Positions 6,593 through 46,174 of a DNA stretch of 49,526 bases are shown here, in pieces. The stretch is from the sequence record NC_054894.1; one strand, given 5' to 3'. Every line of letters begins with the position of its first letter. Position 1 is the stretch's first letter. This DNA comes from Escherichia phage Henu7. The position numbers and the translations under genes are program-made. The notes under the pieces are model-generated. The model was not told the DNA's origin. It was given only the letters and a program-made list of their open reading frames with translations, and did not search any database.

Positions 6593-7009
6593 ATGGTTAC
6601 TGACAAAGGCGATTATCTGGAATATTACGAACGGGATCCGAGCGACACACGCAAGGAGGATTCACACCAGGTTGATTGTGTGGCGTGGTTGCGCCACCAT
6701 TACCCACACTTGCTCTTTTGGCACACTGTTAATGAGGGGAGCAAGACGATCACCACCGCGCTGCGTGACGAACAGGCCGGATTGCTAAAAGGAGTATCCG
6801 ACTTTGTTATCCTGATTGGTTCTGGTAAATACCCGTTTGCAGCAATAGAGCTAAAGCAAGCCAACAAATCAGGGAAGCGCAAAGCCTCACCAGTCAGCGA
6901 TAACCAGAAAGCTTTCTTGAGCAAGGTCAGAGCGCTTGGTGGATTTGCCGCTGTGTGTTATGGCGTTAAGCAATTCAAGATTGCGATCTCAGATCTTTTA
7001 TGTGAATAG
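6593..7009 (+). CDS. VRR-NUC domain nuclease
   Basis: Start ATG 6593 with GGAG RBS right after helicase stop; motifs GVSDFVIL and AAIELK are PD-(D/E)xK-like. Confidence 0.65.
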   Translation: MVTDKGDYLEYYERDPSDTRKEDSHQVDCVAWLRHHYPHLLFWHTVNEGSKTITTALRDEQAGLLKGVSDFVILIGSGKYPFAAIELKQANKSGKRKASPVSDNQKAFLSKVRALGGFAAVCYGVKQFKIAISDLLCE

Positions 7010-7081: not shown

Positions 7082-7360
7082 ATGAAAAAGATGTTATCAG
7101 TAGTTGCTTTATCGCTTTCCATTGTCGGTTGCATGGATAAACCAAAAGCATATATTTGCGGAAATGAAGTGTTTGAGGTTACAAGCGAATACATGAAAGT
7201 TGTAAAAGGTAAAAACACAGGCGTTGTAATGGATAATATCAGCAAAAATAAATACAAGCTGTTTACGCCAATTGGAACAGCTTTTTACACTGTTAACGAT
7301 AGCACAATTGATGTTAGAGTCGGAATCTTTCAGCACACTTTAACTTGCGAGGTGAAATAA
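7082..7360 (+). CDS. small lipoprotein (moron; candidate superinfection-exclusion protein)
   Basis: Signal peptide with lipobox LSIVGC; AT-rich codon usage relative to neighbours; own upstream regulatory unit. Confidence 0.6.
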   Translation: MKKMLSVVALSLSIVGCMDKPKAYICGNEVFEVTSEYMKVVKGKNTGVVMDNISKNKYKLFTPIGTAFYTVNDSTIDVRVGIFQHTLTCEVK

Positions 7361-7361
7361 A

Positions 7362-7498
7362 ATGGCTAAAGACATTCTGGACAACTCAACAATTGATGGT
7401 ATCGAGCAGGTTGATGAAATGGACTTTCACGAATTGCAGCACGGCAAGTATTCAGACATAGCCCTGCGCTCAGGCGGTCATTACCAGGCCGTGAAACC
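7362..7498 (+). CDS. ORF upstream of methyltransferase, probably its N-terminal part separated by an 8-bp tandem duplication
   Basis: Strong RBS GAGGTG before ATG 7362; reading frame runs to 7703; deleting one copy of ACAAGGTT (7510..7525) fuses it in frame to the methyltransferase. Confidence 0.4.
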
Positions 7499-8116
7499 AT
7501 GCCAGTATTACAAGGTTACAAGGTTACAGGCAACCGTTACGCCGGAAGCAACACTCCAGATGTTGTCCGTGACCTTTGGGCTACTCCGCGCGATGTTGTC
7601 GCGTATATGGAAAGCCGCTACGGTAAATATGATCTTGATGCTGCGGCTAGCGAGGACAATAAAGTCTGTGAAAAATTCTACAGCAAGGAAACAAACTGCT
7701 TAAAGCGTTGGTGGGGTAGCAAGAAGCACGTATGGCTGAATCCTCCATATTCGAATCCAGATCCGTTTGTGCTCAAGGCCATTGAGCAAATGGAGCACGA
7801 AAACCAGATCGACATATTGCTTCCAGCCGATAACTCAACGGCATGGTTTAGCGATGCGCAGAAACATGCTGCGGAAATCATCTGGATTACTGGCGAAACC
7901 TGGAAAGATGAAGAAGGGCGCGAATATTCCCGAACCGGACGATTAGCGTTTATTTCCGGCCTGACAGGTGAGCCAGTTAGCGGCAACAACAAAGGCAGTG
8001 TGATCTTTGTGATGCGCAAATTGAAAGAGGGAGAAACGCAACAAACTCACTACGTGAAAATCAGCGATATTTGCCCGTCTGTAAAAAACAAGCGAGCCAA
8101 AGCAAGGAGTTTTTAA
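7499..8116 (+). CDS. DNA N6-adenine methyltransferase (phage Dam-like)
   Basis: Motifs DLWATPRDV, DLDAAAS and NPPYS typical of phage Dam-family amino-methyltransferases; weak RBS at 7499. Confidence 0.7.
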   Translation: MPVLQGYKVTGNRYAGSNTPDVVRDLWATPRDVVAYMESRYGKYDLDAAASEDNKVCEKFYSKETNCLKRWWGSKKHVWLNPPYSNPDPFVLKAIEQMEHENQIDILLPADNSTAWFSDAQKHAAEIIWITGETWKDEEGREYSRTGRLAFISGLTGEPVSGNNKGSVIFVMRKLKEGETQQTHYVKISDICPSVKNKRAKARSF

Positions 8117-8226
8117 TGAAAGATGATATTTCAGCACTTGGAATGCTTTGTGCATTCATGATCGGCGGCGGTTTTTGTTCTTACGCGCTCATTGCGCTAA
8201 TCATCAAAATAGTGGAGTTGATTTAA
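8116..8226 (+). CDS. 36-aa hydrophobic membrane peptide
   Basis: AAGGAG RBS; ATG overlaps the methyltransferase stop (TAATG); sequence MKDDISALGMLCAFMIGGGFCSYALIALIIKIVELI; not in ORF track because of length. Confidence 0.45.
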   Translation: MKDDISALGMLCAFMIGGGFCSYALIALIIKIVELI

Positions 8227-14470: not shown

Positions 14471-14492
14471 TTTTAACAAAAAGTGCTATTTT
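14471..14492 (-). promoter_or_regulatory. palindromic element plus hairpin
   Basis: Minus strand reads AAAATAGCACTTTTTGTTAAAA then GCGGGTCTATTAGATCCGC, TATTAT, leader CAAACGAAAGG. Confidence 0.45.
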
Positions 14493-15199
14493 GAGTTGGC
14501 AAGCCATACAGCAATAGCCAGGCCGCGAGGAGTGAGCGAGTGAATCAGTTTTGTTCGCGCTGATTTACCGCCTAATTTCTTCCAGCCTGGATTATCATTC
14601 CCAACCGGATCAACTGGCAAAGCCTCAGGCATCACAAAGCCGTTACCAGTCCAAAGGCAAGTTTGCTTATTGTAAGCGTCGCTCGCTGGGATGATATCAG
14701 GGAAAGCAGGGTGAGCTTCATCCTTGATATGGATGTAGCCGCCATAGTCGCACGGATGGAATTTGTGATCCGGCTTGCGCCATAGCGTTGACAGCTTGCC
14801 TACAGGGTTTTCGATCATGTACGGAGCGCCGAAATGATCAGCAATCTCCGCCGCAATCTTGCAGGTCGCCGCCGCCTTAACCTGGAAATCTGGATCAATC
14901 TCAGCTTTACGCTTCCAGTGGCGAGATCCGGAGTTTGCAAGGTCAGTACATGGAGGAAACGCCATAATGAAATCAGGCTTACCCCAAAGCAGGTTGCACG
15001 CGCTCGCCTTGAAATCCTCGTCAATCCAGGCGTTAACGTAGCGAATATTGGGATGCGTTACGCGCACTGACTGGTATGAGCCGTGATCACCTTCATCGGC
15101 ATTAAAACAGACAACTTCATAACCAGCTTTCGCCCACGGCATAGCCGCATAGCCGGAGCCGTCGAACATTGAGAAAACCAGGCCTTTACGTTCAAACAT
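14486..15199 (-). CDS. cytosine-C5 DNA methyltransferase-like protein
   Basis: Start ATG 15199 with GAGGTG RBS; motifs FDGSG (motif I-like), FPPCTD (PC catalytic motif IV-like) and IENPVG (ENV motif VI-like); short at 237 aa, so target-recognition domain is minimal. Confidence 0.5.
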   Translation of the reverse strand: MFERKGLVFSMFDGSGYAAMPWAKAGYEVVCFNADEGDHGSYQSVRVTHPNIRYVNAWIDEDFKASACNLLWGKPDFIMAFPPCTDLANSGSRHWKRKAEIDPDFQVKAAATCKIAAEIADHFGAPYMIENPVGKLSTLWRKPDHKFHPCDYGGYIHIKDEAHPAFPDIIPASDAYNKQTCLWTGNGFVMPEALPVDPVGNDNPGWKKLGGKSARTKLIHSLTPRGLAIAVWLANSK

Positions 15200-15209
15200 A
15201 TCTATCACC

Positions 15210-15494
15210 TCAGAACGGGAAGCAACGTTTGCAAGCCGGATCAAAATCACAGCCGCAGTCATTTACAATCATGGTTGGATCGGCAAACATCGCTCCGCTT
15301 TCCATATCCATATCCATATCGCCAAGCGCATCATCCAGCGTGCGCAGTTTATAAGCAACCTCAAGCGCAGCCTCTTTATTCAGTCCAGCCGCCTCCGCCT
15401 CTTGCAGACGGGCAAAGAAACCATCTTGTACCACAATTTTCTCCTCTAAACTGGCGGCGAAATTGCCGCCTTTAAACCAATCAGGACTTACCAA
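15210..15494 (-). CDS. hypothetical acidic protein
   Basis: ORF overlapping the upstream stop; no clear RBS; DMDMDMESG acidic repeat. Confidence 0.35.
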   Translation of the reverse strand: MVSPDWFKGGNFAASLEEKIVVQDGFFARLQEAEAAGLNKEAALEVAYKLRTLDDALGDMDMDMESGAMFADPTMIVNDCGCDFDPACKRCFPF

Positions 15495-28400: not shown

Positions 28401-28456
28401 GCGTGTACAATGAAGGCTGGACTTTTCCAGCCTTTTTTATTATGGGAGATCAGATA

Positions 28457-29737
28457 ATGACCGAGAAAACAAAACTCGTTAAGGCTGACGGCTACAACGA
28501 GATCTTTAAGGGAGAGCAGCGAGTAGAAACGCCATTTTATATGCAGGGCGGCGTTGCAAAACAAAGTCTTGCAACATTCTACGAGCGTGACGGTATGGCA
28601 AAGAGAATCATCGACGTGATCCCTGAGGACATGGTTACGCCAGGCTTTAACGTTGACGGCGTGAAAGACGAGGCAGCATTCCGCTCTTTGTGGGATGAAA
28701 AGAAGCTAAACGCTAAAATCATTGACGCGCTTTGCTGGTCGCGCTTGTTTGGCGGCTCCGCTATTGTCGCAGTTATCAACGATGGGCGCATGTTGAAATC
28801 TCCAGTTAAAGAGGGAGCGCCACTTGAAGATATTCGCGTTTATGACCGATTCCAGATCCGAGTTGAGAAGCGAGAAACAAACGCGCGTAGCGTGCGCTAC
28901 GGCGAGCCTGTTTTGTACACCATCATGCCAGGCGGCGAGATTCCAGAGTATCAGGTGCATTACACGCGAATCTGCATTATTGACGGAGAGCGCTTGCCTA
29001 ACGAGCAGCGCCGGAAAAATGATGGTTGGGGTGCGTCAGTCCTCAACAAGAAGCTGATCGAAGCAATCCACGATTACAACTATTGTGAGGAGTTAGCAAC
29101 TCAGCTTTTACGACGCAAGCAGCAAGCAGTTTGGAAAGCCAAAGGACTCGCTGATTTGTGCGACGATGAAGAAGGTATGTCGGCGGCGCGGCTGCGATTG
29201 GCTCAAGTTGACGACGAGGGCGGCGTTGGTAAGGCAATCGGCATTGACGCAAATGACGAGGAATACGAGGTGCTTAACTCTGATATTTCCGGCGTAGACG
29301 CTTTCCTTGAGAAGAAAATGGATCGCATCGTTTCGCTTACTGGCATCCATGAAATCATCTTGAAGAACAAAAACACCGGAGGCGTTAGCGCAAGCCAAAA
29401 CACCGCGCTTGATACATACCACAAGCTAATTGAGCGCAAGCGCAAAGAGGACTACAAGCCGATCCTGGAGTTCCTCTTGCCATTCATGATCGCAGAGCAA
29501 GAATGGTCTATTTCGTTTGATCCGCTTTCGGTTCCAAGTAGCAAAGACCAGGCTGAGATCTTGAATAAAAACATTGAATCGATCAGTAAGGCGATTGAAG
29601 GTCAGTTTATGGATGTTGAGGAAGGACGCGACACATTGAGATCTATCGCTCCATCTCTTAAACTGAAAGACGGCAACAAAATCAAGCTACCGGAGCCGGA
29701 GCAGGAACCGGAGCCGGAGCCAGGAACGGAGGTCTAA
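28457..29737 (+). CDS. portal protein
   Basis: About 427 aa directly after terminase; RBS GGGAG before ATG 28457; acidic C-terminus with EPEPEP repeats. Confidence 0.65.
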   Translation: MTEKTKLVKADGYNEIFKGEQRVETPFYMQGGVAKQSLATFYERDGMAKRIIDVIPEDMVTPGFNVDGVKDEAAFRSLWDEKKLNAKIIDALCWSRLFGGSAIVAVINDGRMLKSPVKEGAPLEDIRVYDRFQIRVEKRETNARSVRYGEPVLYTIMPGGEIPEYQVHYTRICIIDGERLPNEQRRKNDGWGASVLNKKLIEAIHDYNYCEELATQLLRRKQQAVWKAKGLADLCDDEEGMSAARLRLAQVDDEGGVGKAIGIDANDEEYEVLNSDISGVDAFLEKKMDRIVSLTGIHEIILKNKNTGGVSASQNTALDTYHKLIERKRKEDYKPILEFLLPFMIAEQEWSISFDPLSVPSSKDQAEILNKNIESISKAIEGQFMDVEEGRDTLRSIAPSLKLKDGNKIKLPEPEQEPEPEPGTEV

Positions 29738-42603: not shown

Positions 42604-42622
42604 ACAGCACAAATTGTTAAAA
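42604..42622 (+). promoter_or_regulatory. degenerate palindromic element upstream of J-like gene
   Basis: ACAGCACAAATTGTTAAAA, preceded by hairpin GGTTGC-TATAAT-GCAACC at 42581..42598. Confidence 0.35.
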
Positions 42623-42637
42623 CTGGAGGCCAAAACT

Positions 42638-45600
42638 ATGATAAGCGGCAATAAGGGCGGCTCCTCTAAGCCGTATACGCCAAAGGAGATGGAGGATAAC
42701 CTGATCTCCATCAACAAAATCAAGATCCTCCTGGCGGTTTCAGACGGAGAGGTAGACGGCGAGTTTTCGCTAAAAAATCTCTACCTTGACGACGTGCCAG
42801 TGCAAAACGCAGACGGCTCGCTTAACTATAGCGGTGTTAGTGCTGAGTTCCGGCCAGGCACTCAAACGCAGGACTACATCAAGGGATTTTCAGACACGTC
42901 AAGCGAAGTAACAATTCAGCGAGATCTGGCGCAGAATAACCCTTACAGCATTGCGGTAACAAACAAATCACTATCTGCTATCAGGATCAAAATCCTGATG
43001 CCTCAGGGATACAAGCAGGAGGATAACGGCGATCTGGTTGGTGTATCAGTGCAATACGCGGTTGATATGGCTGTAGACGGCGGCTCATTCAAGCGAGTTC
43101 TGACTGATACGATCACTGGCAAGACAAAAAGCGGCTACGACCGCAGCCAGCGAATCGACCTGCCAGCATTCAACGAGCAGGTGATTTTGCGCGTTAGCCG
43201 AATCACGCCGGACTCTAACACAGGACGAGTTGTTGACGCGATCAGATTGCAGAGCTATGCGGAGGTTGTTGATGCAAAATTCCGTTACCCTCTGACTGGT
43301 CTTGTTTATGTTGAGTTTGATAGCGAGCTTTTCCCGACTCAGCTACCGAACATTTCTATCAAGAAGAAATGGAAGCTGATCAAGGTTCCTGTTAACTACG
43401 ATCCAGATTCGCGCACCTATAGCGGATCATGGAATGGTTTATTCAAGACTGCGTGGAGCAATAACCCTGCCTGGGTTCTGTATGACCTGATCACCAATCA
43501 GCGCTACGGACTCGACCAAAGGGAGCTTGGGATTGAGATCGACAAGTGGAGCATCTACGAGGCTGCGCAATATTGCGATCAGATGGTTCCAGATGGCAAG
43601 GGAGGTTTAGAGCCTCGCTATCTTTGTGATGTGGTTATCCAGAGCCAGATTGAGGCGTTTAACCTTATCCGCGATATTTGCTCAATCTTCCGTGGTATGA
43701 GCTTTTGGAACGGCGAGAGCCTTTCTATCGTGGTGGATAAGCCGCGCGATCCGTCTTACATTTTCAGCAATGACAACGTGGTAAACGGCGATTTTCAGTA
43801 CACATTTGCTAGCGAGAAAAGCATGTATACGCAGTGCAACGTGACTTTCGACGACGAGCAAAACATGTACAGCCAGGATATTGAGGGCGTTTTCGACACT
43901 GAGGCCGCTTTGCGTTTTGGTCACAATCCGACAAGTATCACAGCAATCGGATGCACACGACGCAGCGAGGCGAACCGACGAGGGCGCTGGATTCTCAAGA
44001 CTAACCTGCGCAGCACTACGGTAAACTTTGCAACAGGTCTTGAGGGTATGATCCCGACAATCGGAGACGTGATCGCAATCGCGGATAACTTCTGGTCAAG
44101 TAACTTGACGCTGAATCTTTCGGGGCGCGTCATGGAGGTTTCAGGGCTGCAAGTTTTCCTCCCGTTCCGAGTTGATGCGCGGCCTGGTGATTTTATCCTG
44201 ATAAACAAGCCGGACGGAAAGCCAGTTAAGCGCACTATCTCACGAGTTAGCGCAGACGGGAAAACTATTGAGTTAAACGTTGGCTTTGGTTTCGACGTTA
44301 AGCCGGACACGGTTTTCGCAATCGACAGGACTGATCTTGCGTTGCAGCAGTACGTTGTTACCGGAATAACAAGGGGCGACGATACGGAGCAATTCACGTA
44401 CTCAATAACGGCGGTCGAATACGATCCAAACAAGTACGACGAGATTGATTACGGAGTGAACATTGACGACAGGCCAACAAGCATTGTAAACCCTGGAGTG
44501 ATGAGAGCGCCTGAAAATGTGCAGGTGTCCTCTTACTCTCGCATTGTTCAGGGGCAGAGCGTAGAAACGATGGTTGTTAGCTGGGATAAAGTCGAATACG
44601 CAAGCTTGTACGATGTGCAATGGAGAAAGGACAATAGCAACTGGCTAAACGTTCCTCAGACTGCAAACAAAGAGGTTAGCGTTGAGGGTATTTACTCAGG
44701 CAACTACTTTGTAAGGGTTCGATCAGTATCCGCTTCTGGAAGCACATCGCCTTGGTCTGGCGTTGTTTCCGCCGCATTAACTGGCAAGGTTGGAGAGCCT
44801 AAAATGCCTATTAACTTGACAGCCTCAGATAATGAGATATTTGGGATCCGCGTCAAGTGGGGTATGCCGGAGGGTGCTGGAGATACTGCTTACATAGAGC
44901 TACAGCAAGCGCCGGACGTAGACGGAATGGCTAGCGAAGAAAACGCAACACTGCTAACTCTCGTTCCGTATCCTCAAATGGAGTATTGGCACGCAACGTT
45001 ACCACCTGGATATATCAACTGGTATCGAGTGCGAAGTGTTGACAGGATCGGAAACGTTTCTGCATGGACTGACTTTGTGCGCGGTATGTCGTCAACTAAC
45101 GTTGATGATGTTTTAGGCGACATTCTTGATGATATTTTAAACTCTGCTGGGTTTGAGGAGTTCAAAGAGAATGCCGTAGATACTGCAAACAAGGTTAAAG
45201 ACCAGGCGCAAAGCGTGATCCAGAATGCGCTAGCTATTGATACTAATCTACGCTGGAACCGAGTAGAAAACGGGAAGCGTAAAGCGGAGCACGGACAGGC
45301 GCTGGAGCTTATCGCTAACGAGACTGAGGCGCGAATTCAGGCGGTTGATGTTCTGCGCACTGAGTTTGACGAGGGTATCTCCTCTAACATTACAGAGGTT
45401 AAAACCCTTATCTCTAACGAGGCGGAGACGCGAGCGAGCCAGGTTCAGCAGCTTGAATCTACGTTCACAACAGAGATCGGAAAGACAAACGCAAACGTGA
45501 GTAGCGCACAGCAAGCGATTGCAAAAGAGACTGAGGCAAGGACTCAAGCGGTTAGCTCTCTTGACTCCAAGTTTACAGGGCAGATCAATGGCGTTAAGCA

Positions 45601-46174
45601 GGATTTATCCTCAAACGTCACGAGGTTGGATCAGTCTATCGCGAGCGAGACTCAAGCGAGATCCAGTGCTGACACTGCGTTGTCAACTCGTGTTGGTAAA
45701 ACTGAATCGGCAATTACTCAGAAGCTTGACTCTTGGGTAGACAACGGATCTATAGGTGCTCAGTACGCTCTCAAGCTTGGGATTAAACGTGCTGGTGTTG
45801 AGTACACGGCTGGAGTTTCGCTATCGCTAATCCAGTCAGGTAGCGAGATAAAATCTCAATTCCTGGTTGATGCGGCGAGGTTCGGGGTAATGACTAGGCA
45901 GGGAGGAAGCTACACATTGCCGTTTGTAGTTGATAATGGAACGGTTATCATGAATACGGCGCTAATTAAAAACGGCTCTATAACCAACGCAATGATTGGT
46001 AACGTGATTCAGTCAAATAATTATGTTGCTGGCAAGTCCGGTTGGAGGCTGGACAAAAACGGAAACCTTGAGATCAATGGCAGCGCCGGAAATGGCAGAC
46101 TGACCATTAACAATAACATTATCGCGGTTTACGATGGTAATGGTGTCTTGAGGGTTCGAATGGGGTTGTTCTAA
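42638..46174 (+). CDS. tail tip / central tail fibre protein (lambda J-like host specificity protein)
   Basis: About 1178 aa after M/L/K/I; RBS GGAGG; C-terminal region with ETEAR-type repeats. Confidence 0.8.
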   Translation: MISGNKGGSSKPYTPKEMEDNLISINKIKILLAVSDGEVDGEFSLKNLYLDDVPVQNADGSLNYSGVSAEFRPGTQTQDYIKGFSDTSSEVTIQRDLAQNNPYSIAVTNKSLSAIRIKILMPQGYKQEDNGDLVGVSVQYAVDMAVDGGSFKRVLTDTITGKTKSGYDRSQRIDLPAFNEQVILRVSRITPDSNTGRVVDAIRLQSYAEVVDAKFRYPLTGLVYVEFDSELFPTQLPNISIKKKWKLIKVPVNYDPDSRTYSGSWNGLFKTAWSNNPAWVLYDLITNQRYGLDQRELGIEIDKWSIYEAAQYCDQMVPDGKGGLEPRYLCDVVIQSQIEAFNLIRDICSIFRGMSFWNGESLSIVVDKPRDPSYIFSNDNVVNGDFQYTFASEKSMYTQCNVTFDDEQNMYSQDIEGVFDTEAALRFGHNPTSITAIGCTRRSEANRRGRWILKTNLRSTTVNFATGLEGMIPTIGDVIAIADNFWSSNLTLNLSGRVMEVSGLQVFLPFRVDARPGDFILINKPDGKPVKRTISRVSADGKTIELNVGFGFDVKPDTVFAIDRTDLALQQYVVTGITRGDDTEQFTYSITAVEYDPNKYDEIDYGVNIDDRPTSIVNPGVMRAPENVQVSSYSRIVQGQSVETMVVSWDKVEYASLYDVQWRKDNSNWLNVPQTANKEVSVEGIYSGNYFVRVRSVSASGSTSPWSGVVSAALTGKVGEPKMPINLTASDNEIFGIRVKWGMPEGAGDTAYIELQQAPDVDGMASEENATLLTLVPYPQMEYWHATLPPGYINWYRVRSVDRIGNVSAWTDFVRGMSSTNVDDVLGDILDDILNSAGFEEFKENAVDTANKVKDQAQSVIQNALAIDTNLRWNRVENGKRKAEHGQALELIANETEARIQAVDVLRTEFDEGISSNITEVKTLISNEAETRASQVQQLESTFTTEIGKTNANVSSAQQAIAKETEARTQAVSSLDSKFTGQINGVKQDLSSNVTRLDQSIASETQARSSADTALSTRVGKTESAITQKLDSWVDNGSIGAQYALKLGIKRAGVEYTAGVSLSLIQSGSEIKSQFLVDAARFGVMTRQGGSYTLPFVVDNGTVIMNTALIKNGSITNAMIGNVIQSNNYVAGKSGWRLDKNGNLEINGSAGNGRLTINNNIIAVYDGNGVLRVRMGLF

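Follow-up and report, generated by a model that had tools for sequence, protein, structure and literature searches.

The dam locus of Escherichia phage Henu7 raises the question of whether an 8-bp tandem duplication has divided a gene for a Dam-like methyltransferase and, if it has, whether the break is an ordinary mutation, a reversible switch or an error in the deposited record. Henu7 is a T1-like phage of the Drexlerviridae (Tempevirinae, Henuseptimavirus), and the window, that is the whole stretch of DNA analysed, comprises 49,526 nucleotides of sequence record NC_054894.1. The features on which the argument turns are as follows.

7349..7354, + strand: Shine-Dalgarno GAGGTG of the original dam start, preceding ATG 7362
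7362..7703, + strand: ORF1, 113 aa; native Dam residues 1-52, then 61 out-of-frame residues, with a premature stop at 7701-7703
7499..8116, + strand: ORF2, 205 aa, deposited as methylase; PF05869 Dam core
7508..7528, + strand: period-8 run, with one 8-bp unit extra compared to all relatives examined
7739..7750, + strand: NPPY codons AAT CCT CCA TAT, motif IV of N6-adenine methyltransferases, in the ORF2 frame only
8116..8226, + strand: small 36-codon gene downstream of dam, whose ATG overlaps the dam stop (TAATG)

Repeat and reading frames at the dam locus

Positions 7508-7528 form a perfect period-8 run, TTACAAGG TTACAAGG TTACA, which Tandem Repeats Finder reported with period 8, 2.6 copies and 100% matches. 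The unit ACAAGGTT is found at 7510-7517 and again at 7518-7525. The perfect duplication at 7510..7525 described in the initial annotation was therefore confirmed, the run itself extending over 7508-7528, and within that run the placement of the extra unit is ambiguous (for example 7510-7517 or 7518-7525). ORF1 and ORF2 are read in different frames and share the 205 nt of 7499-7703; the Dam frame is open from 7418. When one 8-bp copy was deleted, the two frames fused, as had been claimed, into a single 747-nt ORF of 248 codons with exactly the sequence quoted for the fusion. In the whole genome, 4 perfect 8+8 tandem repeats were observed, compared to 0.67 expected from dinucleotide shuffles, and such a repeat is by itself statistically unremarkable; a 13-match run at lag 8 was seen in 0 of 200 dinucleotide shuffles. 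The deciding evidence for an 8-bp insertion is comparative rather than statistical.

ORF1 uses the original strong dam start, ATG 7362, and the GAGGTG Shine-Dalgarno sequence in front of it is kept in IsaakIselin, AS5 and Tls. Its N-terminal 52 residues match the Dam of relatives, and a Pfam search of ORF1 gave no match. ORF2, in comparison, was assigned by Pfam to PF05869 (Dam, phage N6-adenine methyltransferase) with E = 1.1e-62 over residues 16-201, covering profile positions 1-162 of 169; its score was 211 bits, that of the repaired protein 210 bits, and the gathering cut-off is 28.1. The DLWATP, DLDAAAS and NPPY blocks are all found in the ORF2 frame only, and residues D68, W70, D88, D90, A91-A93, N124, P125, P126 and Y127 were invariant in both alignments. 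Native residues 1-50, to which the conserved GG(H/Y)YQ segment belongs, are missing from ORF2. Its protein has been deposited for Henu7 as QEA09662.1 / YP_010064747.1 ("methylase"; in RefSeq "DNA methyltransferase", 205 aa).

The translation starts of the two ORFs differ in strength as the initial annotation had stated, with anti-SD duplexes of -7.2 kcal/mol at ATG 7362 and -2.5 kcal/mol at ATG 7499. The latter start has no Shine-Dalgarno sequence, and its score ranks at the 47th percentile among all the genome's ATGs, compared to a median of -8.5 kcal/mol at long-ORF starts. In the intact gene this ATG is out of frame (CCA TGC), and AS5 has TTG and Samwise CTG in its place. Because of these observations, together with the average SD score, we regard ATG 7499 as a fortuitous start.

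Comparison with relatives and origin of the insertion

Among the genomes of the phage collection, those nearest to Henu7 are Enterobacter phage AS5 and Escherichia phage IsaakIselin (both Henuseptimavirus), with ~94% identity over 87-89% of the first 25 kb of Henu7. These two phages, and likewise Samwise and Tls, each have dam as one CDS of 741-747 nt with a start equivalent to 7362, and the only structural difference in the DNA alignment of the four genes with that of Henu7 was the 8 extra bases in the Henu7 repeat. The repeat region was read as single-copy in IsaakIselin, AS5 and Samwise, and a search with 101 nt centred on the repeat found that in 60 of the 60 listed phage records the matched stretch was 8 nt shorter than that of the query, the extra 8 bp being absent from every one of them. 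After removal of the 8 bp, the repaired gene aligned over 747/747 nt with 0 gaps to IsaakIselin (96.9%), Samwise (96.1%) and AS5 (93.0%), and two ENA metagenome contigs gave gapless 747-nt alignments to it at 89.6%. In protein sequence, the repaired gene shares 98% identity with the Dam of IsaakIselin, AS5 and Samwise, 85% with that of Tls and 69% with that of T1.

The single-gene state extends beyond these close relatives. Single Dam ORFs with a homologous N-terminus occur in T1 (237 aa), a Webervirus (242 aa) and SECphi27 (241 aa), so that IsaakIselin, AS5, Samwise, Tls, T1, this Webervirus and SECphi27 each have one annotated Dam of 237-248 aa, and the best 120 homologues in a search of 5.8 billion proteins were all 233-250 aa long. 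The dam of Henu7 is thus not intact or colinear with its Drexlerviridae orthologues, consisting of a 113-aa and a 205-aa ORF separated by a +8 frameshift. A two-ORF arrangement of ancestral origin, in which homologues would begin at a site corresponding to 7499, after an unrelated gene, had been named in the initial annotation as the finding that would speak against a split gene; relatives carry instead a single Dam of 233-250 aa from the equivalent of 7362. Its central claim, that an 8-bp tandem duplication splits a Dam-like gene, is borne out in that the 8 bp are an insertion with respect to every relative examined.

The duplication was present in one record only, that of Henu7. Exact-pattern scans of viral, metagenome and genome contigs gave no match to the duplicated sequence and are uninformative, the lineage not being represented there; since the single-copy Henu7 sequence was likewise absent from the viral and metagenome contigs, these null scans carry no weight. 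Compared to IsaakIselin, the repaired dam has 23 nucleotide changes and ~4 amino-acid changes, which points to purifying selection on dam until very recently and to no decay since.

Henu7 resembles the phages with a T1-type Dam (M.EcoT1Dam; T1, Tls, IsaakIselin, AS5) in its NPPY and DLDAAAS motifs and in its gene order (helicase, VRR-NUC nuclease, small gene, dam, small genes). Unlike theirs, its ORF is interrupted after codon 52, leaving a truncated ORF of 205 aa without a ribosome-binding site. Virion DNA of T1 and TLS has been reported to be GATC-methylated (PMC11447400).

The single-copy sequence suggests how the insertion arose. It reads TTACAAGGTTACA in IsaakIselin and Samwise, compared to TTACAAGGTTACAAGGTTACA in Henu7, and TTACAAGGTTACA contains two copies of the pentamer TTACA at a spacing of 8 bp (TTACA-N3-TTACA), which is a typical slippage substrate. 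The length of the duplicated unit equals the spacing of this pre-existing 5-bp direct repeat, as is characteristic of slippage, and the Henu7 insertion does not differ in kind from slipped-strand duplications at short direct repeats, which are likewise perfect, head-to-tail and of a unit length equal to the spacing of the direct repeat. Among the explanations that the initial annotation had listed, a frameshift by slippage is favoured.

We believe that a recent, isolate-specific 8-bp tandem duplication frameshifts dam in Henu7 and that the resulting allele is null or strongly hypomorphic, a reading to which we assign a probability of about 0.6. The intact dam encodes a T1-Dam-type N6-adenine DNA methyltransferase in 248 codons from 7362. 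Slipped-strand mispairing between the two TTACA copies during replication would have added one 8-bp unit and shifted the reading frame after codon 52. Ribosomes entering at the strong original start would then make a 113-aa product that carries no methyltransferase motif and ends at the stop at 7703, and full-length Dam would no longer be made. The catalytic core persists as a 205-codon ORF behind the chance ATG 7499, and residual Dam synthesis would probably be low because no Shine-Dalgarno sequence precedes this ATG and the region around it is translated in another frame. The phage is viable, presumably as it can do without GATC methylation on dam+ laboratory hosts that have no restriction enzyme cutting unmethylated GATC. 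Reversion could occur through precise loss of one 8-bp copy.

Sequence error, residual activity and switching

The real Henu7 genome could also carry an intact single-copy dam, with the extra 8 bp existing only in the deposited record as a sequencing, assembly or consensus artefact. The confinement of the duplication to one record is consistent with this, and the lack of further decay in dam would be expected if the mutation were very recent or if there were none. A split gene is also present in a second record of the family: in Klebsiella phage Snyder (PQ337357.1, 30713-31445), the annotation gives Dam as two CDS (133 and 108 aa), one extra A in the GGGGAAAAAAAC homopolymer, an A7 run that directly precedes NPPY, having destroyed this motif. 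Like Henu7, Snyder is thus a Drexlerviridae record with a Dam frameshifted into two frames, and broken dam genes therefore do occur elsewhere in deposited genomes of this family. However, the two breaks are of different types: that of Snyder is a +1 change in a homopolymer, of a kind typical of sequencing errors, and removes a catalytic motif, while that of Henu7 lies upstream of the catalytic core and is a perfect 8-bp non-homopolymer duplication, which is atypical of Illumina or nanopore base-calling error. The 21-nt repeat is also shorter than the usual assembly k-mers and reads, making expansion during assembly unlikely.

The rest of the record also argues against an artefact. When the ORFs of at least 60 aa of AS5 and IsaakIselin, both 94% identical to Henu7, were compared with the Henu7 genome by tblastn, dam was the only conserved annotated gene split between frames. 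The sole other multi-frame matches with a real gene fell in the mosaic lateral-tail-fibre region. A candidate second frame change near 2957 was rejected, as this 1-nt indel (~2957) belongs to the untranslated 5′ leader of the lateral tail fibre gene; an indel at ~4507 lies upstream of the annotated start of a regulator gene, and these two and a third at ~15448 are all intergenic or 5′ untranslated. The remaining indels were compensating pairs in divergent patches or were in-frame. Since no other conserved gene is frame-broken, the Henu7 assembly is not error-prone in general. The artefact that the initial annotation had allowed for is not favoured, given the atypical error type and the intact frames elsewhere, and we consider it unlikely.

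The mutation could instead be real and phenotypically silent, initiation at ATG 7499 yielding enough of the 205-aa Dam for the phage genome. ORF2 does contain a complete PF05869 domain with its three sequence blocks, and it keeps everything common to the wider family, including the whole catalytic core. That wider family, searched with HMMER among 1.84 billion representatives, consists mostly of short proteins (median 176 aa for the best 150). In 109 of these 150 the sequence starts at a position corresponding to residue 51 or later, and the fold therefore does not generally require the N-terminal extension. A homologue from a prophage, with 35% identity to M.EcoT1Dam, has been shown to methylate GATC (PMC4996451). 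With the core of ORF2 whole, some active enzyme could arise even if internal initiation were weak.

The lost segment, on the other side, is a Drexlerviridae-specific extension of ~50 residues containing GG(H/Y)YQ, a motif present in all Drexlerviridae Dams including that of T1, and also in a few distant homologues. Its residues G38, Y41 and Q42 were invariant in both alignments and G39 was found in at least 90%, and this conservation suggests that the N-terminal segment matters in the Drexlerviridae subfamily. An AlphaFold2 model of an intact orthologue, built from 24 sequences, had a confident core, with most of residues 1-60 at pLDDT <50 (segments 1-16 and 33-60). A sequence search of the PDB found no relative, and a Foldseek search against the PDB returned only non-significant Rossmann-type methyltransferases (KsgA, MTA1, CcrM), all with E >0.01.

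Translation of ORF2 is the further difficulty for a silent mutation. The score of -2.5 kcal/mol at its ATG stands against the -8.5 kcal/mol typical of long ORFs, and since the ATG lies inside the strongly started ORF1, elongating ribosomes would be expected to compete with initiation there. The ORF1 stop is situated 200 nt downstream of ATG 7499, therefore termination-reinitiation cannot reach this codon and re-initiation is unlikely; de novo initiation would have to take place on an mRNA translated in another frame and with no Shine-Dalgarno sequence to guide it. The earlier suggestion that re-initiation could still produce an active enzyme is thus weak as to the route; that the catalytic domain of ORF2 is whole was confirmed. 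We infer that the full-length enzyme is lost and that some activity from ORF2 is possible, probably at a low level. A mutation with no phenotypic effect is on this evidence improbable.

The duplication might also act as a phase-variable switch, in which 8-bp copies are gained and lost at high frequency and Dam-ON and Dam-OFF genomes coexist in the population. A change in 8-bp copy number does toggle the frame, two-copy tandem repeats revert by slippage more readily than point mutations, and phase-variable methyltransferases are known in bacteria. In such a scheme TTACA-N3-TTACA would be a low-copy slippage switch providing a reversible, bet-hedging ON/OFF state in populations of T1-like phages; genomes with Dam OFF would evade defences that depend on methylation, and those with Dam ON would be safe from enzymes cutting unmethylated GATC. 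The likeness is to phasevarions, mod genes with simple-sequence repeats, where the copy number of a repeat in a methyltransferase ORF sets the frame as it does in Henu7. Known contingency loci, however, have long tracts of 1-7-nt units whose copy number differs among strains. Henu7 has only 2.6 copies of an 8-nt unit and no long tract. Comparison of repeat copy number in related phages, proposed earlier as a check, revealed the single-copy state throughout, with none of the relatives examined having 2 or 3 copies. The unit itself is not conserved, reading TCACA in AS5 and a different sequence in Tls, which argues against selection for repeat maintenance. The on/off switch considered in the initial annotation is accordingly not upheld; the locus does not qualify as a contingency locus, and we consider switching of this kind very improbable.

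Programmed -1 ribosomal frameshifting, by which a shift before ~7525 within the 205-nt overlap would restore a near-native full-length Dam, was rejected as having almost no likelihood, since no X XXY YYZ heptamer, full or partial, is present in the ORF1 frame of the region and the two-frame arrangement is absent from every relative examined. Taken together, the split dam of Henu7 is explained by a single ordinary slippage event or, with lower probability, by an error in the sequence, and not by a programmed switch.

Genome context and significance

The Henu7 genome contains 320 GATC sites, compared to 191 expected from mononucleotide composition and 299 from a Markov model; GATC is not avoided in Henu7, notwithstanding that its own dam is broken. 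A Dcm-like C5 cytosine methyltransferase gene, so annotated in IsaakIselin, is intact at 14486-15262 on the minus strand (258 codons). It holds a perfect 8-bp tandem repeat of its own at 15139-15155, GCATAGCC x2.1, which is common to the relatives and involves no insertion.

Several features were observed in the surroundings of dam. The small gene downstream (8116-8226, + strand) encodes a hydrophobic product, is preceded by an AAGGAG Shine-Dalgarno sequence (-8.0 kcal/mol) and is an annotated 111-nt CDS in IsaakIselin, AS5 and Samwise. Immediately upstream, a 92-aa ORF (7082-7360, + strand) has a lipoprotein-like signal, MKKMLSVVALSLSIVGC, and the match of the genome to Samwise sets in only past this ORF. 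A Pfam search gave no match for either of these two ORFs. A VRR-NUC-type nuclease gene (6594-7009, + strand) is the second gene upstream of dam. Its products, 138-aa VRR-NUC-type nucleases, are present in large number in the protein cluster at 90% identity that contains the Henuseptimavirus Dam, to which they are unrelated in sequence; this mixed cluster looks artefactual and may result from a fused or mis-called ORF that joins the two groups.

Other repeats and length differences were noted in structural genes. A CCGGAG hexamer array of 5.3 copies (29690-29731, + strand) at the 3′ end of the portal-region ORF 28403-29737 includes a 6-nt in-frame insertion compared to AS5 and IsaakIselin, a case of in-frame variation in repeat copy number. 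Compared to the same two phages, the ORF of the J-like tail-tip (host specificity) protein at 42614-46174 has a 42-nt in-frame deletion at ~45470 (+ strand). The lateral tail fibre gene (1104-2963, - strand) is one ORF of 619 codons, mosaic with respect to IsaakIselin and to AS5, where it corresponds to three shorter CDS, and contains repeats at 2125-2186 and 2209-2252 and a 21-bp x3 tandem repeat.

The main value of the present result is a correction of annotation, YP_010064747.1 being the downstream fragment of a frameshifted 248-codon gene in the phage after which the genus Henuseptimavirus is named. It is otherwise an ordinary spontaneous frameshift of a well-known phage gene, of low general interest. 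In the BASEL study, no simple link was seen between methyltransferase genes and restriction sensitivity in Drexlerviridae, and the contribution of Dam to restriction evasion was left open (PMC8594841). If the mutation is real, Henu7 would be a natural Dam-deficient or Dam-truncated T1-like phage, and its comparison with IsaakIselin, with which it shares 97% identity in dam and ~94% across the half of the genome compared, would bear on the role of Dam in evading restriction and on whether the 50-residue N-terminal extension is needed for activity.
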